DNA of 57,011 nucleotides, from sequence record MW602648.1, one strand, 5' to 3'. Made by a program: the position numbers and the translations under genes. The stretch is from Escherichia phage vB_EcoM_fHy-Eco03. Below, one piece after another: positions 2,454 to 31,099 of the stretch. How positions within the stretch are numbered: position 1 is the first letter of the stretch; the number at the start of each line of letters is the position of its first letter. The notes beneath the pieces are model-generated. The model saw nothing but the letters and a program-made list of their open reading frames with translations, was not told where the DNA came from and made no database searches.

Positions 2454-2456
2454 TGC

Positions 2457-6880: not shown

Positions 6881-7016
6881 AACCGGATAAAAATAAGAGT
6901 GTCTAATCACTTCTTCTATATAAGGCGAGTACTTATAAGGATTTAGGCTGTAGACACTCTATCTCACCCTTTTAGACACTCCCATCTTTCACTTCTGCCT
7001 TATTCCTTATATAGCA

Positions 7017-7045
7017 TTTACATTTCCTCAAGTCCTCGTTATAAT
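7017..7045 (+). promoter_or_regulatory. Sigma70-like promoter (TTTACA-N17-TATAAT) upstream of the packaging/head operon
   Basis: TTTACA 7017..7022, 17-bp spacer, TATAAT 7040..7045; ATG of the first structural gene at 7076. Confidence 0.5.
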
Positions 7046-7075
7046 CCGGCATACCGGACCAGCGAGGATTTTTTC

Positions 7076-8840: not shown

Positions 8841-8841
8841 A

Positions 8842-10389: not shown

Positions 10390-10393
10390 AGTA

Positions 10394-10422
10394 TTTACAT
10401 TCTGTTCCACTGGTTATATAAT
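10394..10422 (+). promoter_or_regulatory. Sigma70-like promoter (TTTACA-N17-TATAAT) upstream of scaffold and capsid genes
   Basis: TTTACA 10394..10399, 17-bp spacer, TATAAT 10417..10422; followed by a long GC-rich inverted repeat at 10435..10498. Confidence 0.45.
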
Positions 10423-10565
10423 CTGGAACGTTGACCGCGCAAAAGGCCGGCCACTCGAGTCTGCAGGGCTCAGTGGATTACAGGGGCCGGCTGCGCGGTT
10501 GACGCCAACCCTGTTTAGAGCCCAGTTGAGCGGATTGAGCCCCTCTCATATAGGATTGAAAAATT

Positions 10566-11282: not shown

Positions 11283-11284
11283 TC

Positions 11285-12253
11285 ATGACTTTATACGTAT
11301 TTAACGAACAAGTACGGTCCACCGCCACCGAACTGGTTGACCAGGACGTCCAGAAATTCAACGAAGCTTCAGCCGGTACCCTTATCCTGGGTAACCAGTA
11401 TGTAATCGGCGATTACGTTGAGCAGGCAATGTGGCAGCTGGTTGACGGCATCGCACAGCGCCGTAACGCATACGGCGGTACTACTGCTGTTGACGCCCAG
11501 ACGCTCGGCCAGATTCTGGACCGCTCTGTTAAAATCGACGGCCGTGTTGGTCCTCTGAACATCACCGGCACCATGATGCGTCGTATCGGTGCAGGTGACA
11601 CTGAACCTGCAGCTGTTGTTGCTGCGCAGGCTTCTGCTGCAATGTTCCAGGACTACCTGAACACCACCGCTGCTTGTCTGGTAGCTGCTATCGGCGGTAA
11701 CGCTAAAGTGGTTAAAGACGTTTCCGGCGAAACTGGTGATGCTGCTAACATCAGCATGCAGGGTCTGAACAAAGCTAACGCCCTGATGGGTGACCGCTCT
11801 CAGCAGATTCGTGCGTACATCATGCACTCTATGGCGTTCCACTCACTGGTTGACCAGGCGATTAACAACGCCGAGCGTCTGTTCTCCATCGGTGACCTGA
11901 CCGTGTACCGCGACTTCCTGGGTCGTCGTTACGTCGTCTCCGATATTCCTGCACTTGTGGGCGAAGAAGGCGCATACAAAACTCTGGGTCTGACTCCGTC
12001 AGCTGCTATCGTTCAGGTCGGCGGTCTGTACGATATGGTTACCTCCGAAAAAACCGGTGGTGAAAACATCCTGCGTCAGATGCAGGGTGAATACGACTTC
12101 AACGTGTCTCTGAAAGGTTACAGCTGGGTCGGTCAGAAAACTGGTCAGTCTCCGACTGATGCTGAGCTGGCTGCTAATGCTTCCTGGCAGAAAGTTGCTA
12201 CCTCTGACAAAGACACCGCGGGCGTTATGCTGCTGGCTAAGTCTGTAATCTAA
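11285..12253 (+). CDS. Major capsid protein
   Basis: 322-aa ORF after the scaffold gene; codon usage typical of a highly expressed gene; followed by a strong terminator. Confidence 0.65.
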   Translation: MTLYVFNEQVRSTATELVDQDVQKFNEASAGTLILGNQYVIGDYVEQAMWQLVDGIAQRRNAYGGTTAVDAQTLGQILDRSVKIDGRVGPLNITGTMMRRIGAGDTEPAAVVAAQASAAMFQDYLNTTAACLVAAIGGNAKVVKDVSGETGDAANISMQGLNKANALMGDRSQQIRAYIMHSMAFHSLVDQAINNAERLFSIGDLTVYRDFLGRRYVVSDIPALVGEEGAYKTLGLTPSAAIVQVGGLYDMVTSEKTGGENILRQMQGEYDFNVSLKGYSWVGQKTGQSPTDAELAANASWQKVATSDKDTAGVMLLAKSVI

Positions 12254-12325: not shown

Positions 12326-12694
12326 ATGGGTGGCGCAAGAATCAAACCAGAACCTTCACACATTCGCGGAATATGTATTACAGAAGGTTGTATTAACCCT
12401 CAAGTACGCAGGGATAAAAATAATTATAGAGCACATTGTGCTTCTTGCCACAACAAACGTCATAACATAGGTCCATCGCGATTTAAATATAGAAAGTTTA
12501 AAAAAGATGTTTGTGAAGAATGCGGATTTGTACCAGTACATCCATGTCAGTTAGATGTTGACCACGTAGATGGTAACCATAAAAACGATGACCCTTCTAA
12601 TTTGCGTACTCTTTGCGCTAACTGCCATAGACTCAAAACATACCTTAACAGGGACTGTGTCTCTAACTCTTCAGGTTTACTTGTACAAAATTAG
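12326..12694 (+). CDS. HNH endonuclease
   Basis: Cys-rich N-terminus (CASCHNKRH) and HNH core DVDHVDGNHKNDDPSNLRTLCANCH; free-standing gene inside the structural operon. Confidence 0.7.
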   Translation: MGGARIKPEPSHIRGICITEGCINPQVRRDKNNYRAHCASCHNKRHNIGPSRFKYRKFKKDVCEECGFVPVHPCQLDVDHVDGNHKNDDPSNLRTLCANCHRLKTYLNRDCVSNSSGLLVQN

Positions 12695-12729
12695 AGTGTA
12701 TAATCGGACTAAACAGCTGGAGACAGACT

Positions 12730-13224
12730 ATGGCTTTTGAACTCATTGTTGAAGACGGTAGCATTGTGCCAGGTGCCAACAGCTACGCTAGTAAAGAGCA
12801 GATTGATGACTTCCTGGAAAACGAAGGCATTGTACCACCCACAAACGTTTATTACATGGCTTCCAAAGCTGCTTACCGACTCGACGGTAAATACTCATGG
12901 CTCGGTCGCAAGGTAAGCAAGATTCAGCCTATGCAATGGCCTCGTACTGGACTTGGTCCTTGCAATATCGATATTGCGATGAATGTTATTCCGCCGCAGC
13001 TAATCCGAGCTCAACTGTACTTCCTTGCTGATATGCTTAGCAACGAAACAGAAGAAGGTGTGCGCGGTGACCAGGCTTTGCGTCGTAAGAAAGTTGGTAA
13101 CCTGGAGATTGAATTCTTCGATTCAAAATCTGGTGTAACTGGTAGCTCTAGCGACTGGATTACAGATGCGCGAGAGCTGGTTGCTGATTTAATCGGCGCA
13201 ATGTTCAAAACTCGTCGGGTGTAG
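12730..13224 (+). CDS. Putative head-tail adaptor protein
   Basis: 164-aa ORF after the capsid gene. Called by position and size. Confidence 0.4.
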   Translation: MAFELIVEDGSIVPGANSYASKEQIDDFLENEGIVPPTNVYYMASKAAYRLDGKYSWLGRKVSKIQPMQWPRTGLGPCNIDIAMNVIPPQLIRAQLYFLADMLSNETEEGVRGDQALRRKKVGNLEIEFFDSKSGVTGSSSDWITDARELVADLIGAMFKTRRV

Positions 13225-13225
13225 T

Positions 13226-13693
13226 ATGTACAAGATTCGCTTTGAGCGTCGCAATAAGGAGAAGTTCGACTTTACTTATCGTGCTTACAAATCCTTTAAC
13301 GGTCAGGGCGTATCTGTTGGTATACATCCTGACAAGAATAAACGGAAAGAAGGCGGCATAACAAACACCCAAGTTGCTATTATTCACGAGTACGGTGATA
13401 AGCATAACCCTGAACGTAGCTTTGTACGTCGTACACTTGCAAGACGCGCACCCGCGCGCCTCAAGATTAATGATATGTTTCGGTCAGGTGTTCCTGATGT
13501 ATTGAGCGGTAAGACGACAGCTCGCCAGCTTAATGCAGATATAGGGCAGATGATGGTTAGCGAAATTCGTAAGACCATAGATTCTGATGTTCCGCCTCCT
13601 AATAAACCTTCTACCGTTAAGCGTAAAGGTCACGGACTTACTCTTCGTGAGACCTGGCAGATGTATAACGCTATTGACTATAAGGTAAAGTAA
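13226..13693 (+). CDS. Putative head closure or neck protein
   Basis: 155-aa ORF in the neck module. Called by position and size. Confidence 0.4.
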   Translation: MYKIRFERRNKEKFDFTYRAYKSFNGQGVSVGIHPDKNKRKEGGITNTQVAIIHEYGDKHNPERSFVRRTLARRAPARLKINDMFRSGVPDVLSGKTTARQLNADIGQMMVSEIRKTIDSDVPPPNKPSTVKRKGHGLTLRETWQMYNAIDYKVK

Positions 13694-13694
13694 C

Positions 13695-14096
13695 ATGGGC
13701 CTGTTGAAGATTACTTCATTGCTGAAGAGTAAGACCTTTGTAAAAGATGTACCTGTTCTTATTCGTAAGCAAGGACGAGAAGCTAATGGCGACCTGATTG
13801 ATAACTACGACCAGACAACCTACAAGGCTAACGTCCAACCTGGTGCAGCTACTAACGCACCAAACCTGCTGCCAAAAGATGAGGGTGAACGTGAGCAACC
13901 TCGCATATCTGTTTACTCATTATCTCCGCTTAAACTCGGTGACTTTGTAATGTACACCGACGAAGGCGAAACTACTGGCGAATGGTATCGAGTATTCCGT
14001 ATTGAACCTTGGAGTCGTCATGGACACTATTACGTTACTGCAGTTCGACATATTGGACCTCAGGGAGCTCGTTCGCCGGCTTTTACAATTACCTGA
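13695..14096 (+). CDS. Putative neck or tail-completion protein
   Basis: 133-aa ORF. Called by position. Confidence 0.35.
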   Translation: MGLLKITSLLKSKTFVKDVPVLIRKQGREANGDLIDNYDQTTYKANVQPGAATNAPNLLPKDEGEREQPRISVYSLSPLKLGDFVMYTDEGETTGEWYRVFRIEPWSRHGHYYVTAVRHIGPQGARSPAFTIT

Positions 14097-14553
14097 TGGC
14101 GCGTGTATTATTGGCGAAGAGTCTGGTACAGTTGATGGTCAGCCGTTTGTATTCCTGAAGGAGATGGACGATGGTGACTTTGGTCCACCTCGTACAGTAC
14201 AGAACGACGACGATACAGAAACTGTAACACAACCAAAAATTGTAGATGTTGATATTGAAGCTGTTGGTCCCAAAGCTTCTGTACTTATGAGAAAGCTGCA
14301 TGTACTGTTAAAGAGTTCACCAGCTAAAGAATGGTGTAGAACACATCATTTCAGCATCAACCGTGTTAAGCGTCCATTCAACGTTGGTGGTTTAATGGGT
14401 GCTGGTTTTGAACAACGTTACCGTCTTACGGCTGAAGTAACGTACGTACACAAGGTTAAAATCACGCAGGCTTATATTCGTGACGTGGATATTACTGTGT
14501 ACAATGATAAGCACAAAGAAGACGTCAGACACATATCAGTTAAAACGGAGTAA
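14002..14553 (+). CDS. Putative tail-completion protein (start uncertain)
   Basis: ORF overlaps the upstream gene; the true start is probably internal or non-ATG. Confidence 0.35.
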   Translation: MNLGVVMDTITLLQFDILDLRELVRRLLQLPDGACIIGEESGTVDGQPFVFLKEMDDGDFGPPRTVQNDDDTETVTQPKIVDVDIEAVGPKASVLMRKLHVLLKSSPAKEWCRTHHFSINRVKRPFNVGGLMGAGFEQRYRLTAEVTYVHKVKITQAYIRDVDITVYNDKHKEDVRHISVKTE

Positions 14554-14555
14554 TC

Positions 14556-15176
14556 ATGGCCACTGGTGATGAAGAGATTCAAGCGCAGCTAGAGAAGTTA
14601 ACAACTGCCGTGCAGATTGTCCATGACTTCGGACAGTCAAGTGCGGAATCAATTGACAACCCTGAAGGCGGAGTAATCCGTACGATTGAGGGTATCAACA
14701 AGGCAATTGACGATGCCCTACCTAACTATGCAGATGCTGGAGCGGCAGCTACAGCTGCGAAGAATGCACGTGACGAAGCTAAGCAAGCACAAGCAGCAGC
14801 AGAAGCGGCTGCAGCAAATGCAGGTGGCGTTGTTGCGTCAGCAATCTATAAAGTGAAAACGTATCCCGGCGCTGCTACCATAGCGATTACACCTATGGAT
14901 GCAACTATCCACAAGGTAAACCTGAACCGCGCCAACACGACTCTTTCTGTGGGTTCTACGTCTGATGCAGCTGGTATGGCCCGTCAGATTACCCTGCAGT
15001 TGATTCAGCAAACAGGGTCAAGTAAAGTAACGTGGCCAAGCAACATTAAGTGGTCTCGTCAGCGAGTACCTGTGCTGTCGTTCACGACTGGTTATTCTGA
15101 CTTTGTAACGCTTGTGACAACTGACGCTGGCGCTACCTGGATTGGCTTCTTTAATGACGGATGGGTAAATGCATAA
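14556..15176 (+). CDS. Hypothetical virion protein (206 aa)
   Basis: Ala-rich segment; in the structural operon. Confidence 0.35.
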   Translation: MATGDEEIQAQLEKLTTAVQIVHDFGQSSAESIDNPEGGVIRTIEGINKAIDDALPNYADAGAAATAAKNARDEAKQAQAAAEAAAANAGGVVASAIYKVKTYPGAATIAITPMDATIHKVNLNRANTTLSVGSTSDAAGMARQITLQLIQQTGSSKVTWPSNIKWSRQRVPVLSFTTGYSDFVTLVTTDAGATWIGFFNDGWVNA

Positions 15177-18132
15177 CTTACTCCTGGAAGATGGTACTGA
15201 CCGCAGAGCTAACGTAAAGAGCCTGCTTGAAGGTCACCACCACTTTCTTGCCAATAACACTGGCAAGACAGACGATGCCCAGAAGCAACACTATGTCTTC
15301 AACCCGGAAGGCATAGTGTCAAACAACCGCCATTTTATTGCGCAGACTATGATGGAATATCAACCTAACGGTGATGCACCATCTGAAAGCCAGTCGCTGC
15401 TTATTCTTGGTGAGTTGCATGCTTACATGGCAACTAAAAAACCTGAGTACCTGCAAATGGCCGTAAAGTACTTTGACGCTTATGTCAAGTATTATTACGA
15501 GGGTGACCCGATTCCTGAGACACCTAAACGCTGGATTGCTAACTGGCTTTGCAACGGCAAAGAGCCAGTGCTGGCTAATTTTCCTATCAACCCTAACCAA
15601 CCCACACAAGGCGGATATAAATGCGTTCCGCTGAAGTTTGTGAATGGTAAGGCGCAGATTCCGCAGGGCGCTCCGCTCTGGGGTGAGTACCTGGACGTTG
15701 CTACCTGGGCACACCGCGGTCACATGGCATGGCCAGCTATTAACGGCGATGTACGAGCTATTAAAGATGCTATCAACTGGGACGACATCTATAATAACTA
15801 TCGTATCACAACTATGCCTGCTGAACCGTGGAGTCAGACTGCCTGGGTCGACTGGCAGCGCTATCTTGGTAAACCGTCGTACACAGTTGACTGGTATACG
15901 GATGACCCTAACCAACAGCTGGTAGAATACCTGGTAGCCTGGACCAACAATAAGATTGGCGTTAAGCCCGGCGAAAACGACTCTTTGTGGGGTGGTGACA
16001 TACTGGAGACAGGTCTGCCTGATTCACGCCGTGGCGAGATTCAGCTTCGCGACCATACTGTCAACGGTGTTTACCTGATGAACTACGCTGTGAAGCTGCC
16101 AGTAGAGCACGGCGGTTATATGCTGCAGCGTAACGAAGTATGGCACAACCGTCCCGTTAACGTACCGCTTTACGGTGATAAGCAACGTGGTAATGCTGCT
16201 GACGCCGAGCTCTGGTTCTGTGACGCTTGCTATATGCTATGGCGTGTAACTGGAGAACAACGTTACTATAACGCATGGCAGGCTGTGTTATTTACTCTGG
16301 AAGAATATCTTGATATTGACAGTCAAGACCAATTCTTCCGTAAAAGTTCACAGGCTTCGTCACCGTTTACTGACGGCATCTCTTACGACTGGGCTTATCC
16401 GGAAGAAGCTCGTGCTACTTATTCGCGCGACGCTGACGGCTACATTAACCTGCGACAAAATACTGCAGGCGCTCAATCATCGTTAGAGCAACAATCTGTT
16501 TGGTTCAAAGTCAAACCAACGGCTAAAATCAGAACTGAAGCAGGCGGCAAGGACGACGCAGGCGGTAACATCAACGTTAAGGTTGAAATGTACATGAACC
16601 GCGAGAAGGTTGATGTAGATGAAAACATTGTTGACTTTGTTGCACAGTTGCCACCGCTTGCGGCTACTCCGGCTAATTACTATATTGCGCTTAGTGATTT
16701 CGTTGCTGCTCAAAAGTCTGATGGTTCTGACTATATTCTTGCTGATTTACGGTCTGTTACTAACTATGGTAACTGCGTTATTACACAAGAATACAGAACT
16801 GATATTCTGGATGGGCGTCGCGGTAATACGATTAAGTTTAATATTCCAGACAGTGCCTCAGGGGGTATTGTCGGGTTCTGGTTACTTGATACAGGCGTGT
16901 CACCACTTACGTTGCTGACCTATACATCCAGCGGTAACTTGCTGCTTAAAGTTACTGATAACGAAAACTGGCGCTGGGAGTTAACTCTGCCTGCATCTGC
17001 TGGATGGACTACTAAGGCAATCAACCGTGGTGACTTCGTACTGTCGTCATGGCAAGAAAACACCGGCACTAAACCATCTTCACCTACCTGGACCGCTATT
17101 AACCAGTTCCAGTTGGTGTTACCTGATGACGCAAATGCAGGTGTTAACTTCAGTTACTACTGCGTTAATGATGTTCCGCCACGCTTTAACTGGGATGTGT
17201 CTTACACAATCCGTTATCGCCTGACGTTCAGTGCTAACTCAACTTATACCGTTAAGCTGGGTGACTGTACTGTTATTGGATACGAGCCTAACAACCTGGC
17301 CTATACGCCGGGTGTTGTACCGTTCTCCAACATCTATAACACTGAGTCTCAGCAGTTTGATGGCTGGCACGGTATGCCTTACCCAGGTTATCAGTATCCG
17401 TTTATCTTTACCCACGATGATTCTGCGCTAGGTGCATCGCGTATGAATAACATGGTCGACTTCTTATACGACTCTCAGCAGTGGTACTACAGACGATTCG
17501 GTCAGCTAGGTCCAGGTGCTTCTGCTTATATCTGGAACCGTTGGGATAACTTTAAATACGGTGTTGCTGATACCTTTACCATGTATCACTGGGGCAACGG
17601 TTCAGCCTGGTCAGGTTATCAGCCTCGTGCTTACTTCGGTGCAGCTCGTGCCTGGTATGAGCTGGTTAACCGTGGTAAGACTCCACCAGCACATCTGGTT
17701 GCTTACGTAAACAACTGGACTACTTGGTTGCTCAAGTTTATGCAGAATTCAGGCGGTGTGTCACCGACTAACTTCCCGCAGGAAGGTACGCCGCTGCCGG
17801 ACCCTACTGATTTCACCGGACACATGTGCGGTCTGTGGTTAGCAGGTGCCGCTATGACCGCCCTTTGTGGGTCAGCAGTAAGTCAACAAGCTGAGCAACT
17901 CATGGAGCTGTTGGTCAATGAACTGGAAACTCATTACGATATAACCGGAGTACCAGGTCACGTAATGGATGGTGGATGGTCACCAGCGTTGCGTCTGAGT
18001 ACTGGTAGCGGGCCAGAAAATAACGGCATGTACTTTGGCTTTTACTCTGGTGAAATTCTACGTGGTCTGGGTCTGTATCTGTTGTATCAACAAAAAGGGC
18101 CAAAAGGCGATATTTACGATATGAGCAAGTAA
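15169..18132 (+). CDS. Large structural-module protein of unknown function (987 aa)
   Basis: Largest ORF in the genome, between neck and tail-sheath genes; Trp/Tyr-rich; no motif recognised. Confidence 0.55.
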   Translation: MHNLLLEDGTDRRANVKSLLEGHHHFLANNTGKTDDAQKQHYVFNPEGIVSNNRHFIAQTMMEYQPNGDAPSESQSLLILGELHAYMATKKPEYLQMAVKYFDAYVKYYYEGDPIPETPKRWIANWLCNGKEPVLANFPINPNQPTQGGYKCVPLKFVNGKAQIPQGAPLWGEYLDVATWAHRGHMAWPAINGDVRAIKDAINWDDIYNNYRITTMPAEPWSQTAWVDWQRYLGKPSYTVDWYTDDPNQQLVEYLVAWTNNKIGVKPGENDSLWGGDILETGLPDSRRGEIQLRDHTVNGVYLMNYAVKLPVEHGGYMLQRNEVWHNRPVNVPLYGDKQRGNAADAELWFCDACYMLWRVTGEQRYYNAWQAVLFTLEEYLDIDSQDQFFRKSSQASSPFTDGISYDWAYPEEARATYSRDADGYINLRQNTAGAQSSLEQQSVWFKVKPTAKIRTEAGGKDDAGGNINVKVEMYMNREKVDVDENIVDFVAQLPPLAATPANYYIALSDFVAAQKSDGSDYILADLRSVTNYGNCVITQEYRTDILDGRRGNTIKFNIPDSASGGIVGFWLLDTGVSPLTLLTYTSSGNLLLKVTDNENWRWELTLPASAGWTTKAINRGDFVLSSWQENTGTKPSSPTWTAINQFQLVLPDDANAGVNFSYYCVNDVPPRFNWDVSYTIRYRLTFSANSTYTVKLGDCTVIGYEPNNLAYTPGVVPFSNIYNTESQQFDGWHGMPYPGYQYPFIFTHDDSALGASRMNNMVDFLYDSQQWYYRRFGQLGPGASAYIWNRWDNFKYGVADTFTMYHWGNGSAWSGYQPRAYFGAARAWYELVNRGKTPPAHLVAYVNNWTTWLLKFMQNSGGVSPTNFPQEGTPLPDPTDFTGHMCGLWLAGAAMTALCGSAVSQQAEQLMELLVNELETHYDITGVPGHVMDGGWSPALRLSTGSGPENNGMYFGFYSGEILRGLGLYLLYQQKGPKGDIYDMSK

Positions 18133-18137
18133 TCGTA

Positions 18138-18166
18138 TTTACTTAACCAAAAGTGCCTGCTATAAT
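18138..18166 (+). promoter_or_regulatory. Candidate promoter with extended -10 (TTTACT-N17-TGcTATAAT), overlapping a hairpin
   Basis: TATAAT 18161..18166 lies in the loop of a perfect 8-bp hairpin GTGCCTGC / GCAGGCAC (18153..18177). Confidence 0.35.
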
Positions 18167-18198
18167 ACTGCAGGCACGCAACCATGTTGGAGATAATC

Positions 18199-18630
18199 AT
18201 GGCAGAAGAAGCAAAGCTGAATGGTACAGCTATTGAAGTACCATATCCCGTACCAAAGGACCCGGTTCCTGACTACCGTCAAGAGTCGCCTGTTATTCAG
18301 GACGGTCCGGCACGTGGTAAAATCAATGTGGACTACCAGGGCAAATACGTTCCTGACGTTATCCATGTTGACGGCGTTACTGTTACGCCAAAAAGCAAAA
18401 CTCTGACCGTTGGTGATACCTACCAAATTGAGTCTGTCGTCACACCTGACGATGCTACTGATAAGTCAGTGACTTATAGCTCAAGCAACGACAATGTGAC
18501 TGTTGACTCAAAAGGTAAGTGCACCGCTGCTAAAGCTGGTACCGCTACCGTTACAGTTAAAACCAACGACGGCGGCAAAACTGCAACTGTTGCGTTCACT
18601 GTTAACGAGCCTGCAGATTCAGTTTTTTAA
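18199..18630 (+). CDS. Ig-like (Big_2-type) domain protein
   Basis: One copy of the Ig-like repeat VTPDDATDKSVTYSSSNDNVTVDSKGK...TATVTVKTNDGG; GGAG Shine-Dalgarno 6 nt before the ATG at 18199. Confidence 0.5.
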   Translation: MAEEAKLNGTAIEVPYPVPKDPVPDYRQESPVIQDGPARGKINVDYQGKYVPDVIHVDGVTVTPKSKTLTVGDTYQIESVVTPDDATDKSVTYSSSNDNVTVDSKGKCTAAKAGTATVTVKTNDGGKTATVAFTVNEPADSVF

Positions 18631-18660
18631 TACTCTAGGGCTTCGGCCCCATTTCGTTAG

Positions 18661-20787
18661 GTGCTAACAATGGGCTTACCTTTAAAAGAAATAGTTAACG
18701 TCCAGATTGGCGTTAGCAGCGGTGGTCCAGGCATACCTGAAGATGTACCAGTCAGAGGTATTGGCCTGTCCAAATACTTTTGGGAAATGCGTGTCAATGC
18801 AACTGACAGGCTATACCCAATGTTCAACCCAACAAACTCGCTAGACCGCAAAGTTTACTGGACCGAAGATTCAGACGGTAAAATAGTTACTGTTGATGAT
18901 GACGGTAGGGTGACAGGTCGTGGAATCGGTCAGGCTTACGTTACGTGTGTTACGGAAGACGGTGCTTATCGCGCTACCTGTTTGTATAATATACTGCGCG
19001 CTCTTATACTTGTTACGAGCATTGAATTAGATGCGTATGCAAAGACTATTGAAGAGGGCCAGTCATTTCAGCTTAACGCTACGGTGTTACCTGAGAATGC
19101 AGATGATAAAACTCTTCGCTGGGCTTCAGACAATCCTGACGTGGCTACTGTAAGTAACTCAGGTTTGGTAATAGCGCTTAAAGCAGGTACAGCTAATATA
19201 ACTGCTACCAACAACGTTGTTTCAAATCCCTGTATTGTAACTGTTACACCGCCAGTTATTCACGTCACAGGCATTACGCTTGACGAGAATTCAATAAACC
19301 ATGTTAAAGGCGATACCAAGCAGCTTGAAGCATACGTAGTACCCACAAACGCGACTAACAAAGCTGTTAGCTGGTCTTCCAGCGATACCAGCATTGCTAC
19401 GGTAGATGATACCGGGTTGGTAACATGTGTTGATGTAGGTACTGCCACAATTACCGCTAAGACGGTAGATGGCGGCTATGACGCTACATGCTCAGTTAAA
19501 GTTATACCGGCTATCGTTCGTGTAACAGGTGTTACACTCGACCAGGATGGTCCTCTCGACCTTGAGATTAATGACACGCAACAACTGTCTGCTACTGTTA
19601 CGCCTGACGACGCTACCGACAAGACTGTTGTATGGGACACAACTGACGCCAATGTTCTTATTGTGTCTGCTGAAGGCCTTGTCACCTGTGTTGGTGAAGG
19701 TATAGCAAGCATTACCGTTACTACCAATGACGGCGGCTTCACAGACAGTGTTGAGATTAAAGTTACTAATCCTAACATTGCTGTAACGGGTGTTGCATGG
19801 GCTACTAACTCTCCGACTAAAGTAAGTATCGGCCATCAGGTGCAAACCAAAATTGTTATAACACCCGACAACGCAACCAATAAAAAAGTAAGTTACAATA
19901 GCTCAAACCCAGACGCTGTTACTGTTGACACTAACGGAGTTATATATGGTCAATCTCCTGGAACTTCGACTATTACAGTTACAACAGACGACGGTGGACT
20001 TGAGGCTTCATTTGTAGCGGCTTGCACGGAGGTGGCTGTTATTACACCAGATGGTCTTGGTGGTATTCCAATTGGTGGTACTCAGCAGTTCACTTATACT
20101 GTTAGCCCGTCTGACGCTGAGCTGACTAATATTCGTTATGAGTCTGCTGACCCAGCTATTGCAACTGTTGATTCGTCTGGCGTTGTAACTGGTGTTGCTA
20201 GCGGCGGATGTAACATCTGGATTTACGCAACTAGTAATGGCGCTGACATTAGTGCAGCTACTTGGGCACAAATTTCTGAGAAGGTACAGGTATACCCTCA
20301 GTATGCCGAATGGCTTGTGGGTAACACCAAACAGCTTGATGTTGAGATTTATCCGTCTGACTCTAAGAGCGTTACCGTTACTTATGAATCGTCAGATGAC
20401 ACTATCATTAGTGTAGATGCAAATGGCTTGATGACTGCTAAGTCTGAAGGTTCAGCAACTATTACTGCTAACGTTGTGATGAACGGTGTTGCTGCTTCTG
20501 GTACAACATCTCCTTACGTGTCTGAGCTTTCTGTTACTACTGATTCACTGCCTGCACTTATTGTTGGCAACACGCAGCAACTGGTTGTAACTGTTAGACC
20601 TGAATACGCTAAGACAGACCCAGACTATAACATTCAGTATACAACTACAGACGATACTGTCGCTACTGTAAGTAATACCGGTGTTATTACTGGCGTTGGT
20701 AGTGGTGGATGTCGTATCGGCGCCACAGTAACTGTGAGAAATGCTACATCGTCGGACAGCTCTTATCAGTCCGTCAATGCGGCATAA
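18661..20787 (+). CDS. Multi-Ig-like (Big_2-type) domain protein, fiber or decoration candidate
   Basis: 708 aa with about 8 tandem divergent copies of the motif V.P..ATDK.V.W.SS.......VD..G.VT....GTATIT..T.DGG. Confidence 0.6.
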   Translation: MLTMGLPLKEIVNVQIGVSSGGPGIPEDVPVRGIGLSKYFWEMRVNATDRLYPMFNPTNSLDRKVYWTEDSDGKIVTVDDDGRVTGRGIGQAYVTCVTEDGAYRATCLYNILRALILVTSIELDAYAKTIEEGQSFQLNATVLPENADDKTLRWASDNPDVATVSNSGLVIALKAGTANITATNNVVSNPCIVTVTPPVIHVTGITLDENSINHVKGDTKQLEAYVVPTNATNKAVSWSSSDTSIATVDDTGLVTCVDVGTATITAKTVDGGYDATCSVKVIPAIVRVTGVTLDQDGPLDLEINDTQQLSATVTPDDATDKTVVWDTTDANVLIVSAEGLVTCVGEGIASITVTTNDGGFTDSVEIKVTNPNIAVTGVAWATNSPTKVSIGHQVQTKIVITPDNATNKKVSYNSSNPDAVTVDTNGVIYGQSPGTSTITVTTDDGGLEASFVAACTEVAVITPDGLGGIPIGGTQQFTYTVSPSDAELTNIRYESADPAIATVDSSGVVTGVASGGCNIWIYATSNGADISAATWAQISEKVQVYPQYAEWLVGNTKQLDVEIYPSDSKSVTVTYESSDDTIISVDANGLMTAKSEGSATITANVVMNGVAASGTTSPYVSELSVTTDSLPALIVGNTQQLVVTVRPEYAKTDPDYNIQYTTTDDTVATVSNTGVITGVGSGGCRIGATVTVRNATSSDSSYQSVNAA

Positions 20788-20849
20788 AAATTAATTAACT
20801 AATTACTGGCCATTTACTTGTTTAAGTTTACCGGGTATAATGGCCAGGA

Positions 20850-22007
20850 ATGTCCACAAGAGGATGGCCCGAAATGACGTTAAGTGTAAATAATGTTGTT
20901 AACGTCCAGCTCAATAACATCGCGACTGGCATCCGGAAAGGCGACTTCGGTAAGCTGGCATTTCTGACTCAGGATGCTGGTACCGCTTTCCCGGACACCT
21001 CAACGCCGAAGTATGTTGAGATTGGTACTATTGACGACGTGAAAGATTTATGGGGTACTGGTTCTGTAGTTTACCAGGCTGCTCAGGTATTCTTTGCACA
21101 GTCGCCTAAACCGAAGTCGTTTGTTGTTGGCTTTTGGGATAGCGAAGGTACTCTTACCGATGCTATTGCCAACCTGAACGACATTTATCCGAACTGGTAT
21201 GTTATGCGCCCGCTGCCGCCTACTGGTGTACTGACAGAAGCTCAAATCATTGAGCTGTCCACAGCCGTAGCGGCGTATGACAAAAAACGTTGTTCCTATA
21301 CAACGTCTGTTGCCACGCATATCGAAGCAGGTGATACTAACCCGCTGAAAGATTTGGCCGGTAAAGCTTTCAACAACATGTGGCTACAGTACGATAAGCA
21401 GAACCAGAGGTATGCTGACGTGTCCGCAATGGCGCGTGCTCTGTCTGTAAACTTCTCTGGTAACCGTACTACGATTACTATGAAGTTCAAACAAGAGCCA
21501 GGTATCTCGCCTAACGATAACTTGACGCTGACTGAAGCGAACAAGTGTAAGGCGCTTGGTATTAACTATTACACATATTACAGCACTTTTGCAATGATTG
21601 CGGAAGGTACTGTATTCGGTACTGACCAGCGTTTCTGGGATGAAATTCACGGGCTCGACTGGTTCTGTAATGCCGTGCAGACTTATGTCTTCAATGCGTT
21701 GGCGCAGTCTCCGACTAAAGTTCCTCAGACCAACAAAGGTAATGAGAAGCTGGTTGGTGCAGCAGCTGTTGCGTGTCAAGAAGCTGTCGATAACGGTTTT
21801 ATCGCGCCAGGCGTTTGGTACGGCGACGAGTTCGGTGAGCTTGCTTATGGCGACCGTCTGGAAACTGGTTTCTACATCTACATGCCGGATGTTGATACTC
21901 AGGACCAGGTAGACCGCGAAGCGCGTAAAGCAACTGTTATGCAGATTGCTATCAAACTGGCCGGCGCTATTCACTCTGCCGATATTATTATCAACTTTAC
22001 TCGCTAA
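20850..22007 (+). CDS. Putative tail sheath protein
   Basis: 385-aa ORF directly upstream of the tube, chaperone and tape-measure genes. Confidence 0.5.
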   Translation: MSTRGWPEMTLSVNNVVNVQLNNIATGIRKGDFGKLAFLTQDAGTAFPDTSTPKYVEIGTIDDVKDLWGTGSVVYQAAQVFFAQSPKPKSFVVGFWDSEGTLTDAIANLNDIYPNWYVMRPLPPTGVLTEAQIIELSTAVAAYDKKRCSYTTSVATHIEAGDTNPLKDLAGKAFNNMWLQYDKQNQRYADVSAMARALSVNFSGNRTTITMKFKQEPGISPNDNLTLTEANKCKALGINYYTYYSTFAMIAEGTVFGTDQRFWDEIHGLDWFCNAVQTYVFNALAQSPTKVPQTNKGNEKLVGAAAVACQEAVDNGFIAPGVWYGDEFGELAYGDRLETGFYIYMPDVDTQDQVDREARKATVMQIAIKLAGAIHSADIIINFTR

Positions 22008-22018
22008 GGAGTTAATCA

Positions 22019-22450
22019 ATGATTATCGATTCTTCCGAATGCGTGTTAAGCCTGAATAGTGTTCAGCTCAGTGACTGGGCTGACGGCACAGATGTTATCA
22101 ACGTTGAATGGGTTGACCCTGCGTCAACCTACCTCGCTGGTGCTGACGGCAAAGGTATTCAGATTCTTAACCCGTCGAAAGCGGTGCGTCTGACTGTTAA
22201 GGTTAAATCAAGCGGTCCTGACGCCAAGTACCTGAACGACCAGTACAACCTCCAGCGCAATAACATTCGTGGGTTTACCCCGTTTGTTCTGCAAGCCAAA
22301 GACCTGTTGAACCAGGATTTGGCCTGGGGTAAGAAAGGCTACTTTACCGACGGTACTCCTTGGACCCGTGGTAACGGCCATAACCCGGCGCAGTTCTCCA
22401 TCGTCTTCCATGACGGCGGTATGACACTGACTGAAGGCTTTGACAACTAA
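22019..22450 (+). CDS. Putative tail tube protein
   Basis: 143-aa ORF between the sheath and chaperone genes. Confidence 0.5.
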   Translation: MIIDSSECVLSLNSVQLSDWADGTDVINVEWVDPASTYLAGADGKGIQILNPSKAVRLTVKVKSSGPDAKYLNDQYNLQRNNIRGFTPFVLQAKDLLNQDLAWGKKGYFTDGTPWTRGNGHNPAQFSIVFHDGGMTLTEGFDN

Positions 22451-22468
22451 TAACAGGTAGATAGAAAT

Positions 22469-22927
22469 ATGAGTGAGCCCTCTACTTTTGAAATTGTTTC
22501 TGATGATGGTACAGGTACCGTTATCGAGTATCGCATGACACTCGCAAATGCTCTGCAATCCTGGGGTGCGCTTAAAAAAGCCGGTAAACTCCTTAAAGGT
22601 ATTGGTAGTGCCGATATTGTTGGTGCCGAAAATAAAATCGATAAGTCCAAAGCTATCTTGGCACTTGTCGAAGCGCTGCTTGAAAACGCGTCTTCTCCTG
22701 AGTTTACTGAAATTGAAAAGCTGATTTTTAACAACACCATTGTAGTTGAAAACGGTGACGCTAAGAAGCTACCCACAATTCAGGACCGCCACTTTAATGC
22801 TAACCGCTCGCACATTCTCCCTGTGCTGCAGAAAGGTTTAGTGTTCCAGTTCGGTGGTTTTTTCTCAGGGAATGGCCTGTCAGGAATAGCGGGTCTGGCC
22901 ATTCTCGCGACGTCAGGGAAAAGCTAA
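22469..22927 (+). CDS. Tail assembly chaperone (0-frame product)
   Basis: 152-aa ORF immediately upstream of the tape measure gene; contains the slippery heptamer T_TTT_TTC at 22858..22864. Confidence 0.6.
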   Translation: MSEPSTFEIVSDDGTGTVIEYRMTLANALQSWGALKKAGKLLKGIGSADIVGAENKIDKSKAILALVEALLENASSPEFTEIEKLIFNNTIVVENGDAKKLPTIQDRHFNANRSHILPVLQKGLVFQFGGFFSGNGLSGIAGLAILATSGKS

Positions 22928-23097
22928 AGCAGGACCTTGAACAAGGTACTGACTGGTTTATATGGCTGCCAATCCTCGAGGGTAAAGTTACCCTCGGGGA
23001 GTTAAAGCGCGACTATACTCTAGACGACTTATGCGACCTGCATTTTGCCATGTTCGACTTCGAGGAGCTAAAAGACAATGGCGACAATAATCGATAG
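22858..23097 (+). other. Programmed -1 frameshift site and extension of the tail chaperone
   Basis: 0-frame codons GGT TTT TTC give heptamer T TTT TTC (22858..22864). The -1 frame is open from there to TAG at 23095..23097 (...REKLKQDLEQGTDWFIWLPILEGKVTLGELKRDYTLDDLCDLHFAMFDFEELKDNGDNNR), overlapping the tape-measure start. Confidence 0.6.
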
Positions 23098-27956: not shown

Positions 27957-29114
27957 ATGGGCTCAATTACTAATACAGGCTATGAACCCGTTGCACTTGC
28001 TGACTGGATTTCACGCTTCGAAACTTTGTTCCGTCGTGTGTACGGTTCTGATATTGACTTGTCTGCTAAGTCTGCAGATGGTCAGATGGTTGGTATTCTT
28101 GCGCAGATGTTTGCCGACCAGGACGAGCAAGTTGCAACTGGCTTTGCCATGCTGGACCCTAACCAGGCTTCTGGTACATGGGTTGACCAGTTCCTTGCTT
28201 ACTTGGCGCTGCGTCGTAAGTCAGCACAAACAACTCAGCTGACGATCGTTAAGATTGAAGGTATGCGCGATACTGTTATTCGTCCGCCTTATGTCGTTGT
28301 TTCTAAGTCTGGTGTTAAGTTCCAGCTTAACTCAACTGTTGCTATCGGCGATGATGGCTATGTGCAAACCAGCTTCAGCTCAGTAGAGCAAGGCCAGTTC
28401 AAAGTACTTGCTGGTGACGAGCTGACTCCTGAGACAGTTGTGCTCGGTGTAACTAAAGTAACTAACATGCAGGTATCGTCTGGTGGTTCTGGCGTCGAGC
28501 TTGACGCAGAAGCTATTGATCGTGCATTTGATTCTTACGGTATTACATCTCAGAATACTGTTGATGGTACTGTTGCAGCTATTCGCCAGATGGATGACGT
28601 TATTGCGTGTAACGGTTACGAGAACGAGGACGATGCAACTGACGCTAACGGTCAGGCACCGCATAGTCAGTGGATTATTGTCGACGGTGGAACACCTGCT
28701 AATATCGCTAAAGAGATTATGACTCGTAAGGCGCCAGGTGTTAAGCAAATTGGTGCGCAGACTTATGGCTGGACCGATGCATCTGGCACAGAACGAATTG
28801 CTAAATGGGACCAGCCTACTTATGTTGAACCATACATGAGTATTGTTGTTGCCCGTAAAGAGTTGTTTACCGATGTGTCTGAAGATTTTATCCGCCGCAC
28901 TATAGCATCAAAAATCTTTAACATCGGCGAAGAAGTATCTGCGTTTGAGCTTGGCAGACTGCTGCAAGAAAACCAGAACTTCTATATTAAGCAATTCTTG
29001 ATTGGCCGCACAGCTGAAACAACTACCGAGACGATTCTAAACATCGGTATTAAAGAGCGTGCGATTGTTAACACCGACAGAATCTCTATAGCGGTGGTGA
29101 ATACTAATGGCTAA
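27957..29114 (+). CDS. Putative baseplate J-like protein
   Basis: 385-aa ORF following the gp25-like gene. Confidence 0.5.
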   Translation: MGSITNTGYEPVALADWISRFETLFRRVYGSDIDLSAKSADGQMVGILAQMFADQDEQVATGFAMLDPNQASGTWVDQFLAYLALRRKSAQTTQLTIVKIEGMRDTVIRPPYVVVSKSGVKFQLNSTVAIGDDGYVQTSFSSVEQGQFKVLAGDELTPETVVLGVTKVTNMQVSSGGSGVELDAEAIDRAFDSYGITSQNTVDGTVAAIRQMDDVIACNGYENEDDATDANGQAPHSQWIIVDGGTPANIAKEIMTRKAPGVKQIGAQTYGWTDASGTERIAKWDQPTYVEPYMSIVVARKELFTDVSEDFIRRTIASKIFNIGEEVSAFELGRLLQENQNFYIKQFLIGRTAETTTETILNIGIKERAIVNTDRISIAVVNTNG

Positions 29115-29757
29115 CTATCGTAAACTGTTAATTCAGCAATACGCTCAGCAGCCAAAAGCCCTGGCAACAATCCATGGTTTCGACGATGCTATCCAGGAGA
29201 TTTGGGATGGTATGGTCGCAGTAACAAACAGCCTCAATATTGACTTGGCTTACGGTAAAGCGCTAGATAATGTTGCGGCACGGGTAGGCGCTAGTCGGTA
29301 TATTAAGAAAGGTGTTGAGCGTACTTTCTTCGGCTTTAATAACCTGGATACCACGGCAGGTTTCGGCGGTTCGTCTGGTTATCGTGGTGGTGTATTCTAC
29401 AGATACGGAGTGTCAACATTCGACCCGTTAACACTGGACGATACAGACTTACGCACATACATCAAGATGAAAATCTGGAAGAACATGCAGCAAGCTAACT
29501 TCCCGTACTTGATTGCGTTCTTAACCGAGTTCTTTGGCGAGAACAACTTTATTGTTACTGACAATGAAGATATGACGGTTAATATTGAAATTTATGGGAC
29601 ACTAACGCCGATTAAGCAAGTGTTGATTGTTAACTATGATATTCTGCCGCGTGCGTCAGGAGTCAAGTACAATCTCAATACGTCAATCACACCGACTGAC
29701 AGCCTTTATCGCTATGTCACAGTTAACTTACCAGCACAGGTGAATGTATATGGCTAA
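29107..29757 (+). CDS. Putative baseplate/tail protein (gpI-like)
   Basis: 216-aa ORF after the J-like gene. Confidence 0.4.
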   Translation: MANYRKLLIQQYAQQPKALATIHGFDDAIQEIWDGMVAVTNSLNIDLAYGKALDNVAARVGASRYIKKGVERTFFGFNNLDTTAGFGGSSGYRGGVFYRYGVSTFDPLTLDDTDLRTYIKMKIWKNMQQANFPYLIAFLTEFFGENNFIVTDNEDMTVNIEIYGTLTPIKQVLIVNYDILPRASGVKYNLNTSITPTDSLYRYVTVNLPAQVNVYG

Positions 29758-31099
29758 CGTACAAACTCGCCCGGACAATACTATCTTTGCGGAAAGCGCA
29801 TTGACGGGTGAAGTAACTGAATTCCAGAACCTTGCTCGTGGTTGGGGTTCTACCCTTACATATTCAGCGGGTATTCCGCCTATGGAGTGGTTTAACTTCA
29901 TCGGCCAGCGTTCTGATAAGGGTATTCACTATATCCTGCAGCAGGGTGTGGACCAGTGGAATGCCACTGAGACCTACCCTGTTGGGGCACTTGTTAAAGT
30001 TCTTGCCGATAACTGCCTTTATAAGGCGCTTACTCAGAACCTTAACAAAGAACCAAAAGCTAACGGTAACGACTGGGTTAAAGTTCTGGACGTTACAGCC
30101 GCATCTGCTGCTGCACGTCAGGTAGGTCGTAACACTGGTAATGTTGTACAGATTGGTGCATTTGGTATTGGTTCTACAGCTGAACAGATTACCAATGCTG
30201 ATTCACCAACTCAGTCTGGTTTTTACGGTTTACCAGCTACGGGTGCAGGTAACCCTGTATCTGGTCAGGCATCTGAGATTATCCATATTCAATATGATGC
30301 TAACAACGCTACTCAGTACGCTAAAGGTATCAATAAGCGTACCATCTATACTCGTGACCAAGTAAACGGTACTTGGACCGCATGGGAAGGTCAGTATGGC
30401 CCGAGCAACAAACCAACTGCGCAAGAGCTTGGCATCAACCAGGACTTTATACCGATGGATGGCTCTGAGTCAATCCGTGGTAACCTCGGTACTGTGGGCT
30501 GGGTTCATATTGCTCGCACTACGTCCGACCTATTGCGCGCTGCTAATAGCAGCGGTGTTGGTGTTGCCGAAATTGTTGGTAACGTTGCTGGAGGACTGGC
30601 CGTACAGCACCGACTGACATCTGTGTCGGTAGCAGCAAACTCTCATACAGCTTTCCTGGGTATGTGGGGTTCCGTTGCAATGACCAGCATTAAGCAGGTA
30701 CTGCAATCCAATGGTTCAACAAGATTTGACCTGGATGTATGCCGTCCTGGTTCAGTAGCTGACCGCCGTGTTACTGGTGCACAACTGGATGGTGCTAATA
30801 GCCGATTCACCACAACAAACGGCTTTACTTTGCAGGAAAACGGTGTTAGAGTATATTCACCTAACAACCCACAACCTGTGGATGTTTCCTGGGCCGTTCG
30901 TCGGGTTCGTCTTGGCAGTGAAGTTCGTAACAACCGTAACGGCAGTGAGTCGTTTGTACTCCGCATGCCAGCCGGTCACATGGCAACTGGTTTTGATATT
31001 CACTCTAAAGGCGGTCGTGAGGATGAGTTCAATGCCGTATTCTCTCGCCCAATTCAGATGAACATTAACGATGTATGGTATACGGTGGACCAACTATGA
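29744..31099 (+). CDS. Putative tail fiber protein
   Basis: 451-aa ORF after the baseplate genes; Gly/Asn/Thr-rich. Confidence 0.45.
   Translation: MYMANVQTRPDNTIFAESALTGEVTEFQNLARGWGSTLTYSAGIPPMEWFNFIGQRSDKGIHYILQQGVDQWNATETYPVGALVKVLADNCLYKALTQNLNKEPKANGNDWVKVLDVTAASAAARQVGRNTGNVVQIGAFGIGSTAEQITNADSPTQSGFYGLPATGAGNPVSGQASEIIHIQYDANNATQYAKGINKRTIYTRDQVNGTWTAWEGQYGPSNKPTAQELGINQDFIPMDGSESIRGNLGTVGWVHIARTTSDLLRAANSSGVGVAEIVGNVAGGLAVQHRLTSVSVAANSHTAFLGMWGSVAMTSIKQVLQSNGSTRFDLDVCRPGSVADRRVTGAQLDGANSRFTTTNGFTLQENGVRVYSPNNPQPVDVSWAVRRVRLGSEVRNNRNGSESFVLRMPAGHMATGFDIHSKGGREDEFNAVFSRPIQMNINDVWYTVDQL

Follow-up and report, generated by a model that had tools for sequence, protein, structure and literature searches.

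A conserved and apparently exchanged cassette of a putative adaptor, a predicted toroid-fold protein and two Big_2 proteins in a Rosemountvirus-like myophage

The closest described counterparts of the locus presented here are gp140/gp141 of phage phi92, together with PVP-SE1 gp051/gp050, rV5 gp43/gp42 and Bas50_0025/0026 (PHROG 2871). Latka 2017 (PMC5380687) counts phi92 gp141 among the receptor-binding proteins of glycosidase type; the phi92 cryo-EM study of 2026 does not place it. Both gp42 and gp43 were detected in rV5 virions (PMC3606486), the two being equated with toroid and adaptor by gene order and the 222-aa length of gp43 alone. Two broader groups of phage proteins also invite comparison: branched or modular tailspikes (CBA120 TSP1-4; the T7 gp17 N-terminal domain; P2 gpI-gpH), which likewise keep the virion anchor separate from the glycan-targeting head, and Ig-like phage domains (lambda gpV C-terminus, T4 Hoc, Bas63 Hex-Dec), which have tandem Big_2 domains and a variable domain number in common with our locus.

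We analysed a 57,011-nucleotide stretch of Escherichia phage vB_EcoM_fHy-Eco03 (MW602648.1), hereafter the window. Its 987-aa protein shows full-length homology to the phi92 gp141 group and has the same upstream partner, but the window pair sits in the neck operon, between tail terminator and sheath, instead of a baseplate cluster; the N-terminus of its adaptor is different and helical, and two Big_2 proteins follow the pair. Unlike the modular tailspikes, the window head is predicted to be an alpha/alpha toroid and not a beta-helix, and anchor and head are separate polypeptides with a dedicated conserved docking domain. Set against lambda gpV, T4 Hoc and Bas63 Hex-Dec, the Ig-like proteins of the window have no recognisable capsid- or tube-binding domain, and eight domains are gathered in one free-standing protein. 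The features discussed below are as follows.

12676..12704, plus strand: promoter-like TTTACT-N17-TATAAT preceding the head-tail adaptor gene; a BP63 promoter is annotated at the equivalent place
14002..14553, plus strand: tail-terminator gene (Pfam Phage_tail_terminator_9), left flank of the block
14556..15176, plus strand: 206-aa gene (adaptor), its stop overlapping the start of the 987-aa gene
14700..20800, no strand: approximate extent of the mosaic cassette, from the identity drop against vB_SE1_KM
15169..18132, plus strand: 987-aa gene (toroid protein), predicted (alpha/alpha)6-barrel glycosidase-like, phi92 gp141 / PHROG 2871 family
18138..18166, plus strand: promoter-like, TG-extended form of the motif, separating the 987-aa gene from the Ig genes; BP63 promoter annotated equivalently
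18199..18630 (ORF from 18184), plus strand: small Ig gene, 143 aa with one Big_2 domain; GGAG ribosome-binding site before ATG 18199
18670..20787 (alternative GTG start 18661), plus strand: Ig array gene, 705 aa with eight Big_2 domains
20813..20841, plus strand: promoter-like, the motif again, before the sheath gene at the right end of the block; S144 promoter annotated equivalently
20850..22007, plus strand: DUF3383 sheath gene, right flank of the block

The open reading frames at 15169..18132, 18184/18199..18630 and 18661..20787 are real and lie between the tail-terminator and DUF3383 sheath genes, as the initial annotation had them; the 206-aa gene was left out there. That annotation also called the region an insertion, a description we do not retain: the same four genes are syntenic in BP63 (gp28-31), vB_SE1_KM and S144 (ORF16-19), so that the block is conserved across two genera and is a standard part of the genus, with nothing unusual about its presence. 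The Ig array most likely starts at ATG 18670 and not at 18661, giving 705 aa, because the resulting MGLPLKE... start is as in BP63 and KM and has AGGTG upstream. The 206-aa and 987-aa genes are translationally coupled through their overlapping stop and start. The window contains four exact copies of TTTACT-N17-TATAAT where shuffles lead one to expect 0.00; these promoter-like sites bracket the two Ig genes. The unit predicted from the site at 12676..12704 comprises the neck genes with the 206-aa and 987-aa genes; given the site at 18138..18166, the two Ig genes would form a transcription unit of their own.

The 987-aa protein had been described as having no recognisable motif, which holds for sequence profiles (the whole protein has no Pfam match) but not for the predicted fold, which is clearly recognisable. 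Its AF2 model (pLDDT 89.1, pTM 0.85) is an (alpha/alpha)6 glycosidase-like barrel with two beta-sandwich inserts, in place of the beta-helix, depolymerase or lectin folds that had been suggested; the right-handed parallel beta-helix of tailspike depolymerases is not present in the model. The inserts are located as follows.

15523..16173 (residues ~119-335), plus strand: first beta-domain insert of the barrel, from model secondary structure; 49% mean identity to distant homologs
16345..17277 (residues ~393-703), plus strand: second insert, beta-sandwich CBM-like domains with Foldseek matches to CBM11 and CBM22; least conserved part

Family membership is secured by full-length homology: the protein matches PHROG 2871 with E = 0 and 1369 bits, and is 42% identical to phi92 gp141 over residues 12-979, 44% to the ISAO8 protein and 29% to Bas50_0026. 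Homologs were found in 536 phage records, 520 of them covering at least 80% of the query. Relatives are annotated as tail or lateral-tail-fibre proteins, Bas50_0026 as a 'lateral tail fiber protein with glycosidase domains', and the ISAO8 homolog, which occupies the T7 tail-fibre slot, as a 'glycosyl hydrolase'. The family includes 311 homologs at 45-50% identity, with members from Pseudomonas, Acinetobacter and Brenneria. Compared with distant homologs, the barrel averages 54-56% identity and insert 2 averages 35-37%, and invariant residues (among them D69, E73, D345, E347, D384, D793, E962 and many Trp/Tyr) occupy 64 of 459 barrel positions versus 16 of the 311 in insert 2, which is a candidate specificity module. 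A separate candidate, the 'gp38' of Rosemountvirus SD286 (2026 paper), proved to be an unrelated 123-aa DUF7173 protein from the replication module.

The barrel is predicted to resemble clan GH-M type (alpha/alpha)6 hydrolases (GH8 BcsZ and CelA; CPF_2247; GH48) as well as GH76, GH88 and GH105, and two by-eye motifs point towards GH8. The family sequences 'TTEGQSL' (E73) and 'NAADAExWF' (D345) resemble 'TTSEGQSY' and 'SASDGDVWM' of Escherichia coli BcsZ in the same order, and both stand at the N-termini of predicted barrel helices two and four, taken as the GH8-equivalent helices; 'TTSEGQSY' we take to be the GH8 catalytic-acid motif. Profile comparison does not bear this out. Against those enzymes, which are secreted or periplasmic where the toroid is a virion component, there is no significant sequence or profile similarity, and the barrel is interrupted by beta inserts of ~220 and ~310 aa. 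PDB phmmer and profile searches with the protein and its alignment returned nothing even at E = 10; Pfam on insert-free constructs gave only a sub-threshold GH127 match; and hhalign of the family profile against BcsZ, whole or with inserts removed, reached a probability of 0.1-0.2% in a register that differs from the by-eye match. The protein thus shares the clan GH-M fold and not its sequence profile; we do not assign GH8 membership or GH8 catalytic residues, and treat the motif likeness as a lead only. It is unlikely, though worth weighing, that the barrel is without hydrolase activity, whether lost or never acquired, and acts as a rigid glycan-binding or structural head: no catalytic motif can be aligned with statistical support and non-hydrolases share the fold, but the acidic and aromatic barrel residues are very strongly conserved across hosts, and the GH8-like motifs, for what such a lead is worth, also speak for an enzyme. 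Activity, substrate and oligomeric state we infer.

The 206-aa protein consists of an N-terminal helical (coiled-coil-like) segment of ~95 aa and a C-terminal beta-sandwich (~residues 100-206), in a model built on a shallow alignment of 17 close relatives. Over its C-terminal 85-118 residues it shares 36-48% identity (E 1e-16 to 1e-31) with the product of the gene just upstream of the toroid gene in phi92 (gp140), Bas50 (0025), ISAO8, a siphophage, an SU10-like podophage and an HP1-like prophage. In the window and in seven separate contexts (BP63, phi92, Bas50, ISAO8 and the loci L004, L010 and L011), a small docking-domain gene lies directly upstream of the toroid gene, with E of 1e-16 to 1e-64. 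Homologous adaptors begin with anchor domains that are already known, Phage_T7_tail for ISAO8 and Tail_spike_N for Bas50, and one P2-like prophage has its toroid fused straight to the baseplate protein gpI. The adaptor N-terminus of the window matched no other protein of the genome, the N-terminus of the baseplate fibre included, and the same was true of the Ig proteins. It is from gene pairing only that we infer physical contact between adaptor and toroid.

ESI-MS/MS of S144 virions detected gp16 (adaptor), gp17 (toroid, 25 peptides) and gp18 (small Ig, 80% coverage), while ORF19, the ortholog of the Ig array, is absent from the virion proteins detected (PMC7432712). The initial annotation's choice of collar or whisker fibres, decoration proteins or an adhesin therefore stands to the extent that these are virion-associated host-surface candidates, with three orthologs present in S144; for the Ig array, the missing ortholog weakens the reading as a decoration protein. 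The enzyme-like fold, moreover, belongs to a protein that is virion-borne in relatives, and not to a non-structural enzyme family, which that annotation had named as the outcome that would count against it.

Where on the virion the adaptor and toroid would sit is finely balanced, neck and baseplate being about equally likely. A collar or whisker at the head-tail connector, possibly including the Ig proteins and serving to capture glycans or to stabilise the head-tail joint, is a serious possibility that falls short of an even chance. The genes lie directly 3' of the tail terminator, translationally coupled and within the neck-gene transcription unit, but gene order is no proof of location. Podophage cassettes are adaptor-proximal, with a T7 gp17-type N-terminus in ISAO8 and, in L010, a position directly 3' of the SU10 adaptor gene; the GP4 gp77 fibre-tail adaptor domain is present in one homolog, and the neck collar of myophage Bas63 is built from structural relatives of that domain (PMC12609058); and the STEM description of ZCSE2 mentions a 'collar'. 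Against a neck position, homologs are found in the baseplate clusters of phi92, rV5/Bas50 and P2- and HP1-like elements, in micrographs of S144 the only fibres described are short, rigid and located on the distal tail, and nothing resembles known collar proteins. Nor does the analogy to T4 wac drawn in the initial annotation survive: there is no fibritin-like match in Pfam or PHROG, and neither sequence nor fold supports a relation.

The alternative, to which we give the same weight, is a lateral fibre hanging from the periphery of the baseplate beside the Mu-type fibre, as has been assumed for phi92 gp141. Homologs inside the baseplate/fibre clusters of phi92, Bas50 and HP1-/P2-like prophages argue for it, as do a siphophage homolog 3' of a gpJ-like tip protein, the direct toroid-gpI fusion, and the resemblance of the adaptor fold to tailspike/fibre N-terminal anchoring regions and to a T4 gp9-like baseplate protein. 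The window baseplate is nevertheless of a simple Mu/P2 type (J-like 27957..29114, DUF2612 29107..29757, one fibre gene) with no obvious second docking site; the adaptor N-terminus shares nothing with the fibre N-terminus, and the 206-aa and 987-aa genes lie 9 kb from the baseplate genes, in the neck operon.

Comparison with vB_SE1_KM, the closest relative and our reference for the extent of the cassette, reveals a mosaic. Nucleotide identity is 91-98% in the flanks and 64-82%, or unalignable, at ~14,700-20,800; at the protein level, flanking genes are 96-100% identical, against 81% for the 206-aa protein, 79% for the 987-aa protein, ~44% for the small Ig protein and 54% for the array. The left recombination breakpoint, near 14,700-15,000, falls inside the 206-aa adaptor gene, whose 5' part (93% to KM) is backbone-linked and whose 3' part travels with the 987-aa toroid gene in nucleotide comparison. 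Nucleotide identity to BP63 is lowest at 16800-17099, within the second insert of the 987-aa protein. The Ig array gene is chimeric: the 18600-18899 bin, at 82% nucleotide identity to vB_SE1_KM, is the most KM-like part of the cassette, and 19800-20700, the C-terminal half, is 93-97% identical to BP63. A breakpoint thus lies within the array, and the Ig genes have been exchanged with the toroid gene as one block. On these sequence comparisons the region appears as a conserved yet horizontally exchanged mosaic cassette of a Rosemountvirus-like myophage.

Both Ig-like proteins are as first proposed, a single-domain protein and an eight-domain Big_2 protein, by Pfam and, for the domain boundaries of the array, by our own HMM. 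Relative to the Pfam gathering cut-off of 22.8 bits for Big_2 (PF02368), the array ORF (708 aa from 18661) scores 331.8 bits in eight stretches (E 3.4e-101) and the small protein 55.3 bits in one (E 6.5e-15). The array begins with a conserved N-terminal peptide of ~29 aa, followed by domains at 30-115, 117-199, 201-285, 287-372, 374-462, 461-543, 542-628 and 619-704, the last two being 46.5% identical to phi92 gp152. In the small protein, a proline-rich N-terminus of 58 aa precedes the single Big_2 domain (residues 59-142), one fewer than in its BP63 and vB_SE1_KM orthologs. Between codon-aligned array domains, identity is only 34-54% for nucleotides and 16-43% for amino acids, with a period of 84-87 aa (252-261 nt). 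Tandem Repeats Finder on 18100-20900 found nothing at a score of at least 30, and repeated DNA is confined to patches of 14-41 nt at 258-261-nt spacing; the recombinogenic ~270-bp tandem repeats of the initial annotation are accordingly not detectable as DNA, the repetition lying at the level of protein domains. Its idea of domain shuffling fares better, relatives showing gains and losses of whole domains in addition to the breakpoint inside the array.

These domains could be an independent capsid or tail decoration, Hoc-like and adhering to mucus or surfaces, with no functional relation to the toroid, a reading we regard as rather doubtful. The Ig genes have their own promoter-like site, the small Ig protein has the highest peptide coverage in S144, suggestive of an abundant virion protein, domain number differs among relatives as in Hoc-like proteins (PMC12609058), and most PHROG matches fall on Ig domains that belong to major tail or head proteins. 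Yet Pfam and PHROG reveal no recognisable capsid-binding domain, the array ortholog went undetected in S144 virions, and the Ig genes recombine with the toroid gene as a single block. In addition, toroid and Big_2 array occur in one chain in five clusters of ~1,690-aa proteins; since some phages fuse the array to the toroid C-terminus in this way, we favour a functional link between the two.

Taken as a whole, the region is best explained, and we think probably so, as a two-part host-surface-interaction cassette: an accessory fibre of adaptor and toroid, plus Big_2 modules. The 206-aa and 987-aa proteins would form the two components of this fibre, the backbone-specific helical N-terminus of the adaptor anchoring it to the virion and the conserved C-terminal beta-sandwich docking the 987-aa protein. 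The latter is predicted most likely to bind, and probably to cleave or modify, a host surface polysaccharide. This may allow a primary adsorption that is reversible, and penetration of the glycan layer, ahead of receptor engagement by the Mu-type baseplate fibre (29744..31099), with the two Big_2 proteins as putative accessory Ig-like adhesion or spacer modules. It counts against this explanation that a receptor-binding protein specific for O-antigen or capsule would not usually be so strongly conserved among hosts that differ so much. A far-reaching extension, improbable when taken jointly, would make docking adaptor and toroid a universal plug-and-play receptor-binding cassette for myo-, sipho- and podoviruses, in which nothing but the adaptor N-terminus is swapped. 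On that view the toroid would represent a virion-borne glycoside hydrolase family, so far undescribed, whose substrate is a conserved glycan of the envelope; Rosemountvirus and Loughboroughvirus would carry a neck-mounted enzymatic collar of a new kind; and gp140/gp141 would be the as yet unassigned 'fiber II' of phi92.

The toroid family is very widespread: it occurs in 536 genomes of isolated phages, among them therapeutic-type phages of the rV5-like, phi92-like and Rosemountvirus groups. If the docking domain truly links a portable head that targets glycans to an anchor specific for the phage backbone, this would supply a simple annotation rule and a handle for host-range engineering, in which the cassette could be swapped at the natural breakpoint inside the adaptor gene. 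In practical terms, what the window gains is a better annotation: the region would be an ordinary feature, an accessory host-surface-binding kit of a known kind that is exchanged among phages.

All open reading frames of the initial annotation between the neck genes and the sheath gene are present. By Pfam, the block lies between a tail terminator (PF23961) and a sheath of DUF3383 type. It has one further member, a 206-aa gene omitted previously that ends just inside the 987-aa gene, overlapping its start, and forms part of one unit with it:

14556..15176, + strand, 206-aa protein (the adaptor, see below)
15169..18132, + strand, 987-aa protein (the toroid)
18199..18630, + strand, small Ig protein
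18670..20787, + strand, Ig array (705 aa; 708 aa if read from GTG 18661)

On alignment with the orthologues in BP63 (a Rosemountvirus relative) and Salmonella phage vB_SE1_KM (KM), the array most likely begins at ATG 18670 (MGLPLKE) rather than GTG 18661, and the start of the small Ig gene is placed at 18199, with a GGAG site in front. Upstream, a head-completion-like gene (13695–14096, +) and the tail-terminator ORF (14002–14553, +, TTG start) share 95 nt, read in different frames, comparable to the 77-nt overlap annotated in BP63. A 122-aa HNH endonuclease gene (12326–12694, +; Pfam HNH, 34.8 bits) separates the major capsid and head–tail adaptor genes; this stretch has no alignment in BP63 or KM and so looks like a mobile homing-endonuclease insertion, and ZCSE2 has an annotated HNH gene in the equivalent position. 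Positions 1–3699 of the window are identical to 53313–57011 (3,699 bp, 0 mismatches), meaning that it represents one 53,312-bp genome read beyond its start; the source assembly is therefore circular or circularly permuted.

The block had been proposed to be a 6-kb insertion. A megablast search with 13000–23000 matched 64 phage records. Almost all of these are Salmonella or Escherichia myophages of the Rosemountvirus type, ~52–54 kb in size (BP63, UPF_BP2 and birk among them), and KM is the closest. The four genes occupy the matching place in BP63 (gp28–gp31), KM and Loughboroughvirus S144 (ORF16–19) and thus belong to the ground plan of both genera, which speaks against an insertion. They are instead a mosaic cassette exchanged between phage lineages. 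The proteins encoded on either side (capsid, adaptor, neck, terminator, sheath and tube) share 96–100% identity with KM, and those of the block 81% (206-aa), 79% (987-aa), ~44% (small Ig, over much of its length not orthologous) and 54% (array). In 300-nt bins, nucleotide identity to KM is 91–98% up to ~14,700 and from ~21,000 on, and 64–82% or unalignable between; the left recombination breakpoint lies within the 206-aa gene. Identity to BP63 is ~60–80% throughout but rises to 93–97% at 19,800–20,700 only, indicating that the Ig-array gene is itself chimeric.

The expected eight or so Ig-like domains of the array were recovered as eight Big_2 stretches (Pfam, E 3.4e-101), bounded at residues 30–115, 117–199, 201–285, 287–372, 374–462, 461–543, 542–628 and 619–704 by an HMM made from the four clearest repeats. 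The small Ig protein has one Big_2 domain (E 6.5e-15). At the DNA level, the reported ~270-bp tandem array holds as a repetition of protein domains but not as a useful DNA repeat: Tandem Repeats Finder detects no tandem repeat in the region, recurring DNA is limited to 14–41-nt patches spaced 258–261 nt apart, and codon-aligned domains share 34–54% nucleotide and 16–43% amino-acid identity. A Big_2 domain present in the BP63 and KM small Ig proteins is missing here, and the KM array is shorter by ~84 residues. These whole-domain gains and losses, with the chimeric array gene, support the suggested domain shuffling, by phage–phage recombination and in-frame domain gain or loss, though with no recombinogenic internal DNA repeat behind it.

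The 987-aa protein matches PHROG 2871 ('tail protein', 1369 bits) and has 311 database homologues, with identity still at 45–50% in Pseudomonas, Acinetobacter and Brenneria. Previously described as lacking recognizable motifs, it indeed gives no Pfam match, either whole or as insert-free constructs, but its predicted fold is recognizable. A confident AlphaFold2 model (49 input sequences; pLDDT 89.1, pTM 0.85) places helices at 12–109, 344–381 and 744–976, interrupted by β-domains at ~119–335 and 393–703, the β-part matching CBM11 and CBM22 in Foldseek. As modelled, the protein is a complete glycosidase-type (α/α)6 barrel with two inserted β-modules. Against 44 distant homologues, the barrel retains 54–56% mean identity and 64 invariant positions, and the second insert 35–37% and 16, a pattern that fits a conserved core, for catalysis or binding, accompanied by a carbohydrate-binding module that can adapt more freely. 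No curated glycosidase family could be assigned by sequence, PDB sequence searches gave no match, and hhalign of the family against Escherichia coli BcsZ was not significant. By eye, the family consensus stretches TTEGQSL (invariant E73) and NAADAExWF (invariant D345, E347 and W349) resemble BcsZ TTSEGQSY and SASDGDVWM, which we take to be the GH8 catalytic-acid and signature motifs; they share the BcsZ order and are located where the presumed equivalent helices begin. We regard this resemblance as a lead, not a result.

Translated searches place the toroid in 536 phage records, including rV5-like Vequintavirus, phi92-like, SPN3US-like jumbo, Goslar, Erwinia M7-like and Vibrio phages and the T7-like Yersinia phage ISAO8. 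The BASEL phage Bas50 homologue is annotated 'lateral tail fiber protein with glycosidase domains', and that of ISAO8, in the tail-fibre slot, 'glycosyl hydrolase'. Phi92 gp141 (42% identity, full length) is listed as a glycosidase among five receptor-binding proteins (PMC5380687). The S144 authors noted a hydrolase HHpred signal for ORF17 and kept the name 'tail protein'; the BASEL authors described the Vequintavirinae fibre locus as largely conserved, with glycan-hydrolysing domains probably aimed at conserved glycans (PMC8594841). The literature we found shows no activity, substrate or virion position for the family.

The 206-aa protein has a full-length BP63 orthologue (54% identity). Outside Rosemountvirus relatives, in every separately encoded context examined, its last 85–118 residues match (36–48% identity, E 1e-16 to 1e-31) the C terminus of the protein directly upstream of the toroid gene:

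phi92 gp140, directly 5′ of the toroid gene
Bas50_0025, directly 5′ of the toroid gene
ISAO8 'tail fiber protein', directly 5′ of the toroid gene
siphophage contig, adaptor and toroid pair 3′ of a gpJ-like tip protein
SU10-like podophage contig, pair 3′ of the SU10 adaptor gene
HP1-like Pseudomonas prophage, pair between gpI and a fibre gene

The N termini of these adaptors are mutually unrelated and, where recognizable, are known virion-anchoring domains: Phage_T7_tail (ISAO8) and Tail_spike_N (Bas50). One P2-like prophage encodes the toroid as a direct fusion with the baseplate protein gpI. The pairing suggests that the 206-aa protein and toroid physically bind each other. The anchor half of the 206-aa protein would keep to the phage backbone and its docking half move with the toroid gene, in agreement with the breakpoint inside its gene. 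On the SU10-like contig, directly 3′ of the adaptor-domain and SU10 adaptor genes, the toroid homologue (6691–11364) carries a C-terminal fusion to a non-contractile tail sheath protein (Pfam NCTSP_N and TIM-barrel_NCTSP), suggesting that a toroid can be incorporated in a podophage tail sheath.

The window contains four exact copies of TTTACT-N17-TATAAT (0.00 expected). This motif is probably the phage's own σ70-type promoter consensus, with promoters annotated at equivalent places in BP63 and S144:

12676–12704, + strand, intergenic, 5′ of the head–tail adaptor gene
18138–18166, + strand, intergenic, 5′ of the small Ig gene
20813–20841, + strand, intergenic, 5′ of the sheath gene
38925–38953, − strand, fourth copy

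By these positions, the adaptor and toroid genes share a unit with the neck genes, and the two Ig genes make up one of their own. Proteins in five database clusters (~1,690 aa) combine a toroid with a Big_2 array on a single chain, which occupies the side-fibre position in at least one siphophage; such fusions argue for a functional link between Ig proteins and toroid. The last two array domains share 46.5% identity with phi92 gp152 (21321–21929 of the phi92 sequence examined). Among S144 virion proteins, coverage was highest for the small Ig protein (80%), and the array (ORF19) is not in the detected-protein list.

Two mounting sites for the adaptor–toroid complex are about equally likely. 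Gene position and the operon shared with neck genes point to the neck, as do placement close to adaptor genes in podophages and one homologue bearing a GP4 gp77 fibre–tail adaptor domain, relatives of which build the Bas63 neck collar. Homologue gene context in phi92, rV5-like, P2-like and HP1-like elements points to the baseplate, as do S144 micrographs, which mention distal fibres only. The adaptor N terminus has no match in the rest of the genome. Downstream of the tape-measure gene, a 299-aa protein (24766–25665, +) labelled 'tail fiber protein' or endolysin by PHROG matches Pfam Dit_like (77.9 bits) and is probably a tube-initiator or distal-tail-type protein, so automatic 'tail fiber' labels are unreliable in this phage group.

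Phi92 gp140 and gp141 (4239–7588 of the phi92 sequence examined) are the adaptor and toroid homologues. The 2026 whole-virion cryo-EM study of phi92 left 'fiber II' without an assigned protein and nowhere mentions gp141 (PMC13450770), making the gp140–gp141 complex a candidate for fiber II.

The block is thus real, correctly located and a standard module of these phages, already loosely annotated and no unusual insertion. To this our analysis adds a predicted fold for the 987-aa protein, exact boundaries for the mosaic, its transcription structure, the reading of the nucleotide 'repeat' as a protein-domain repeat only, and an adaptor–toroid pairing conserved across tail types.
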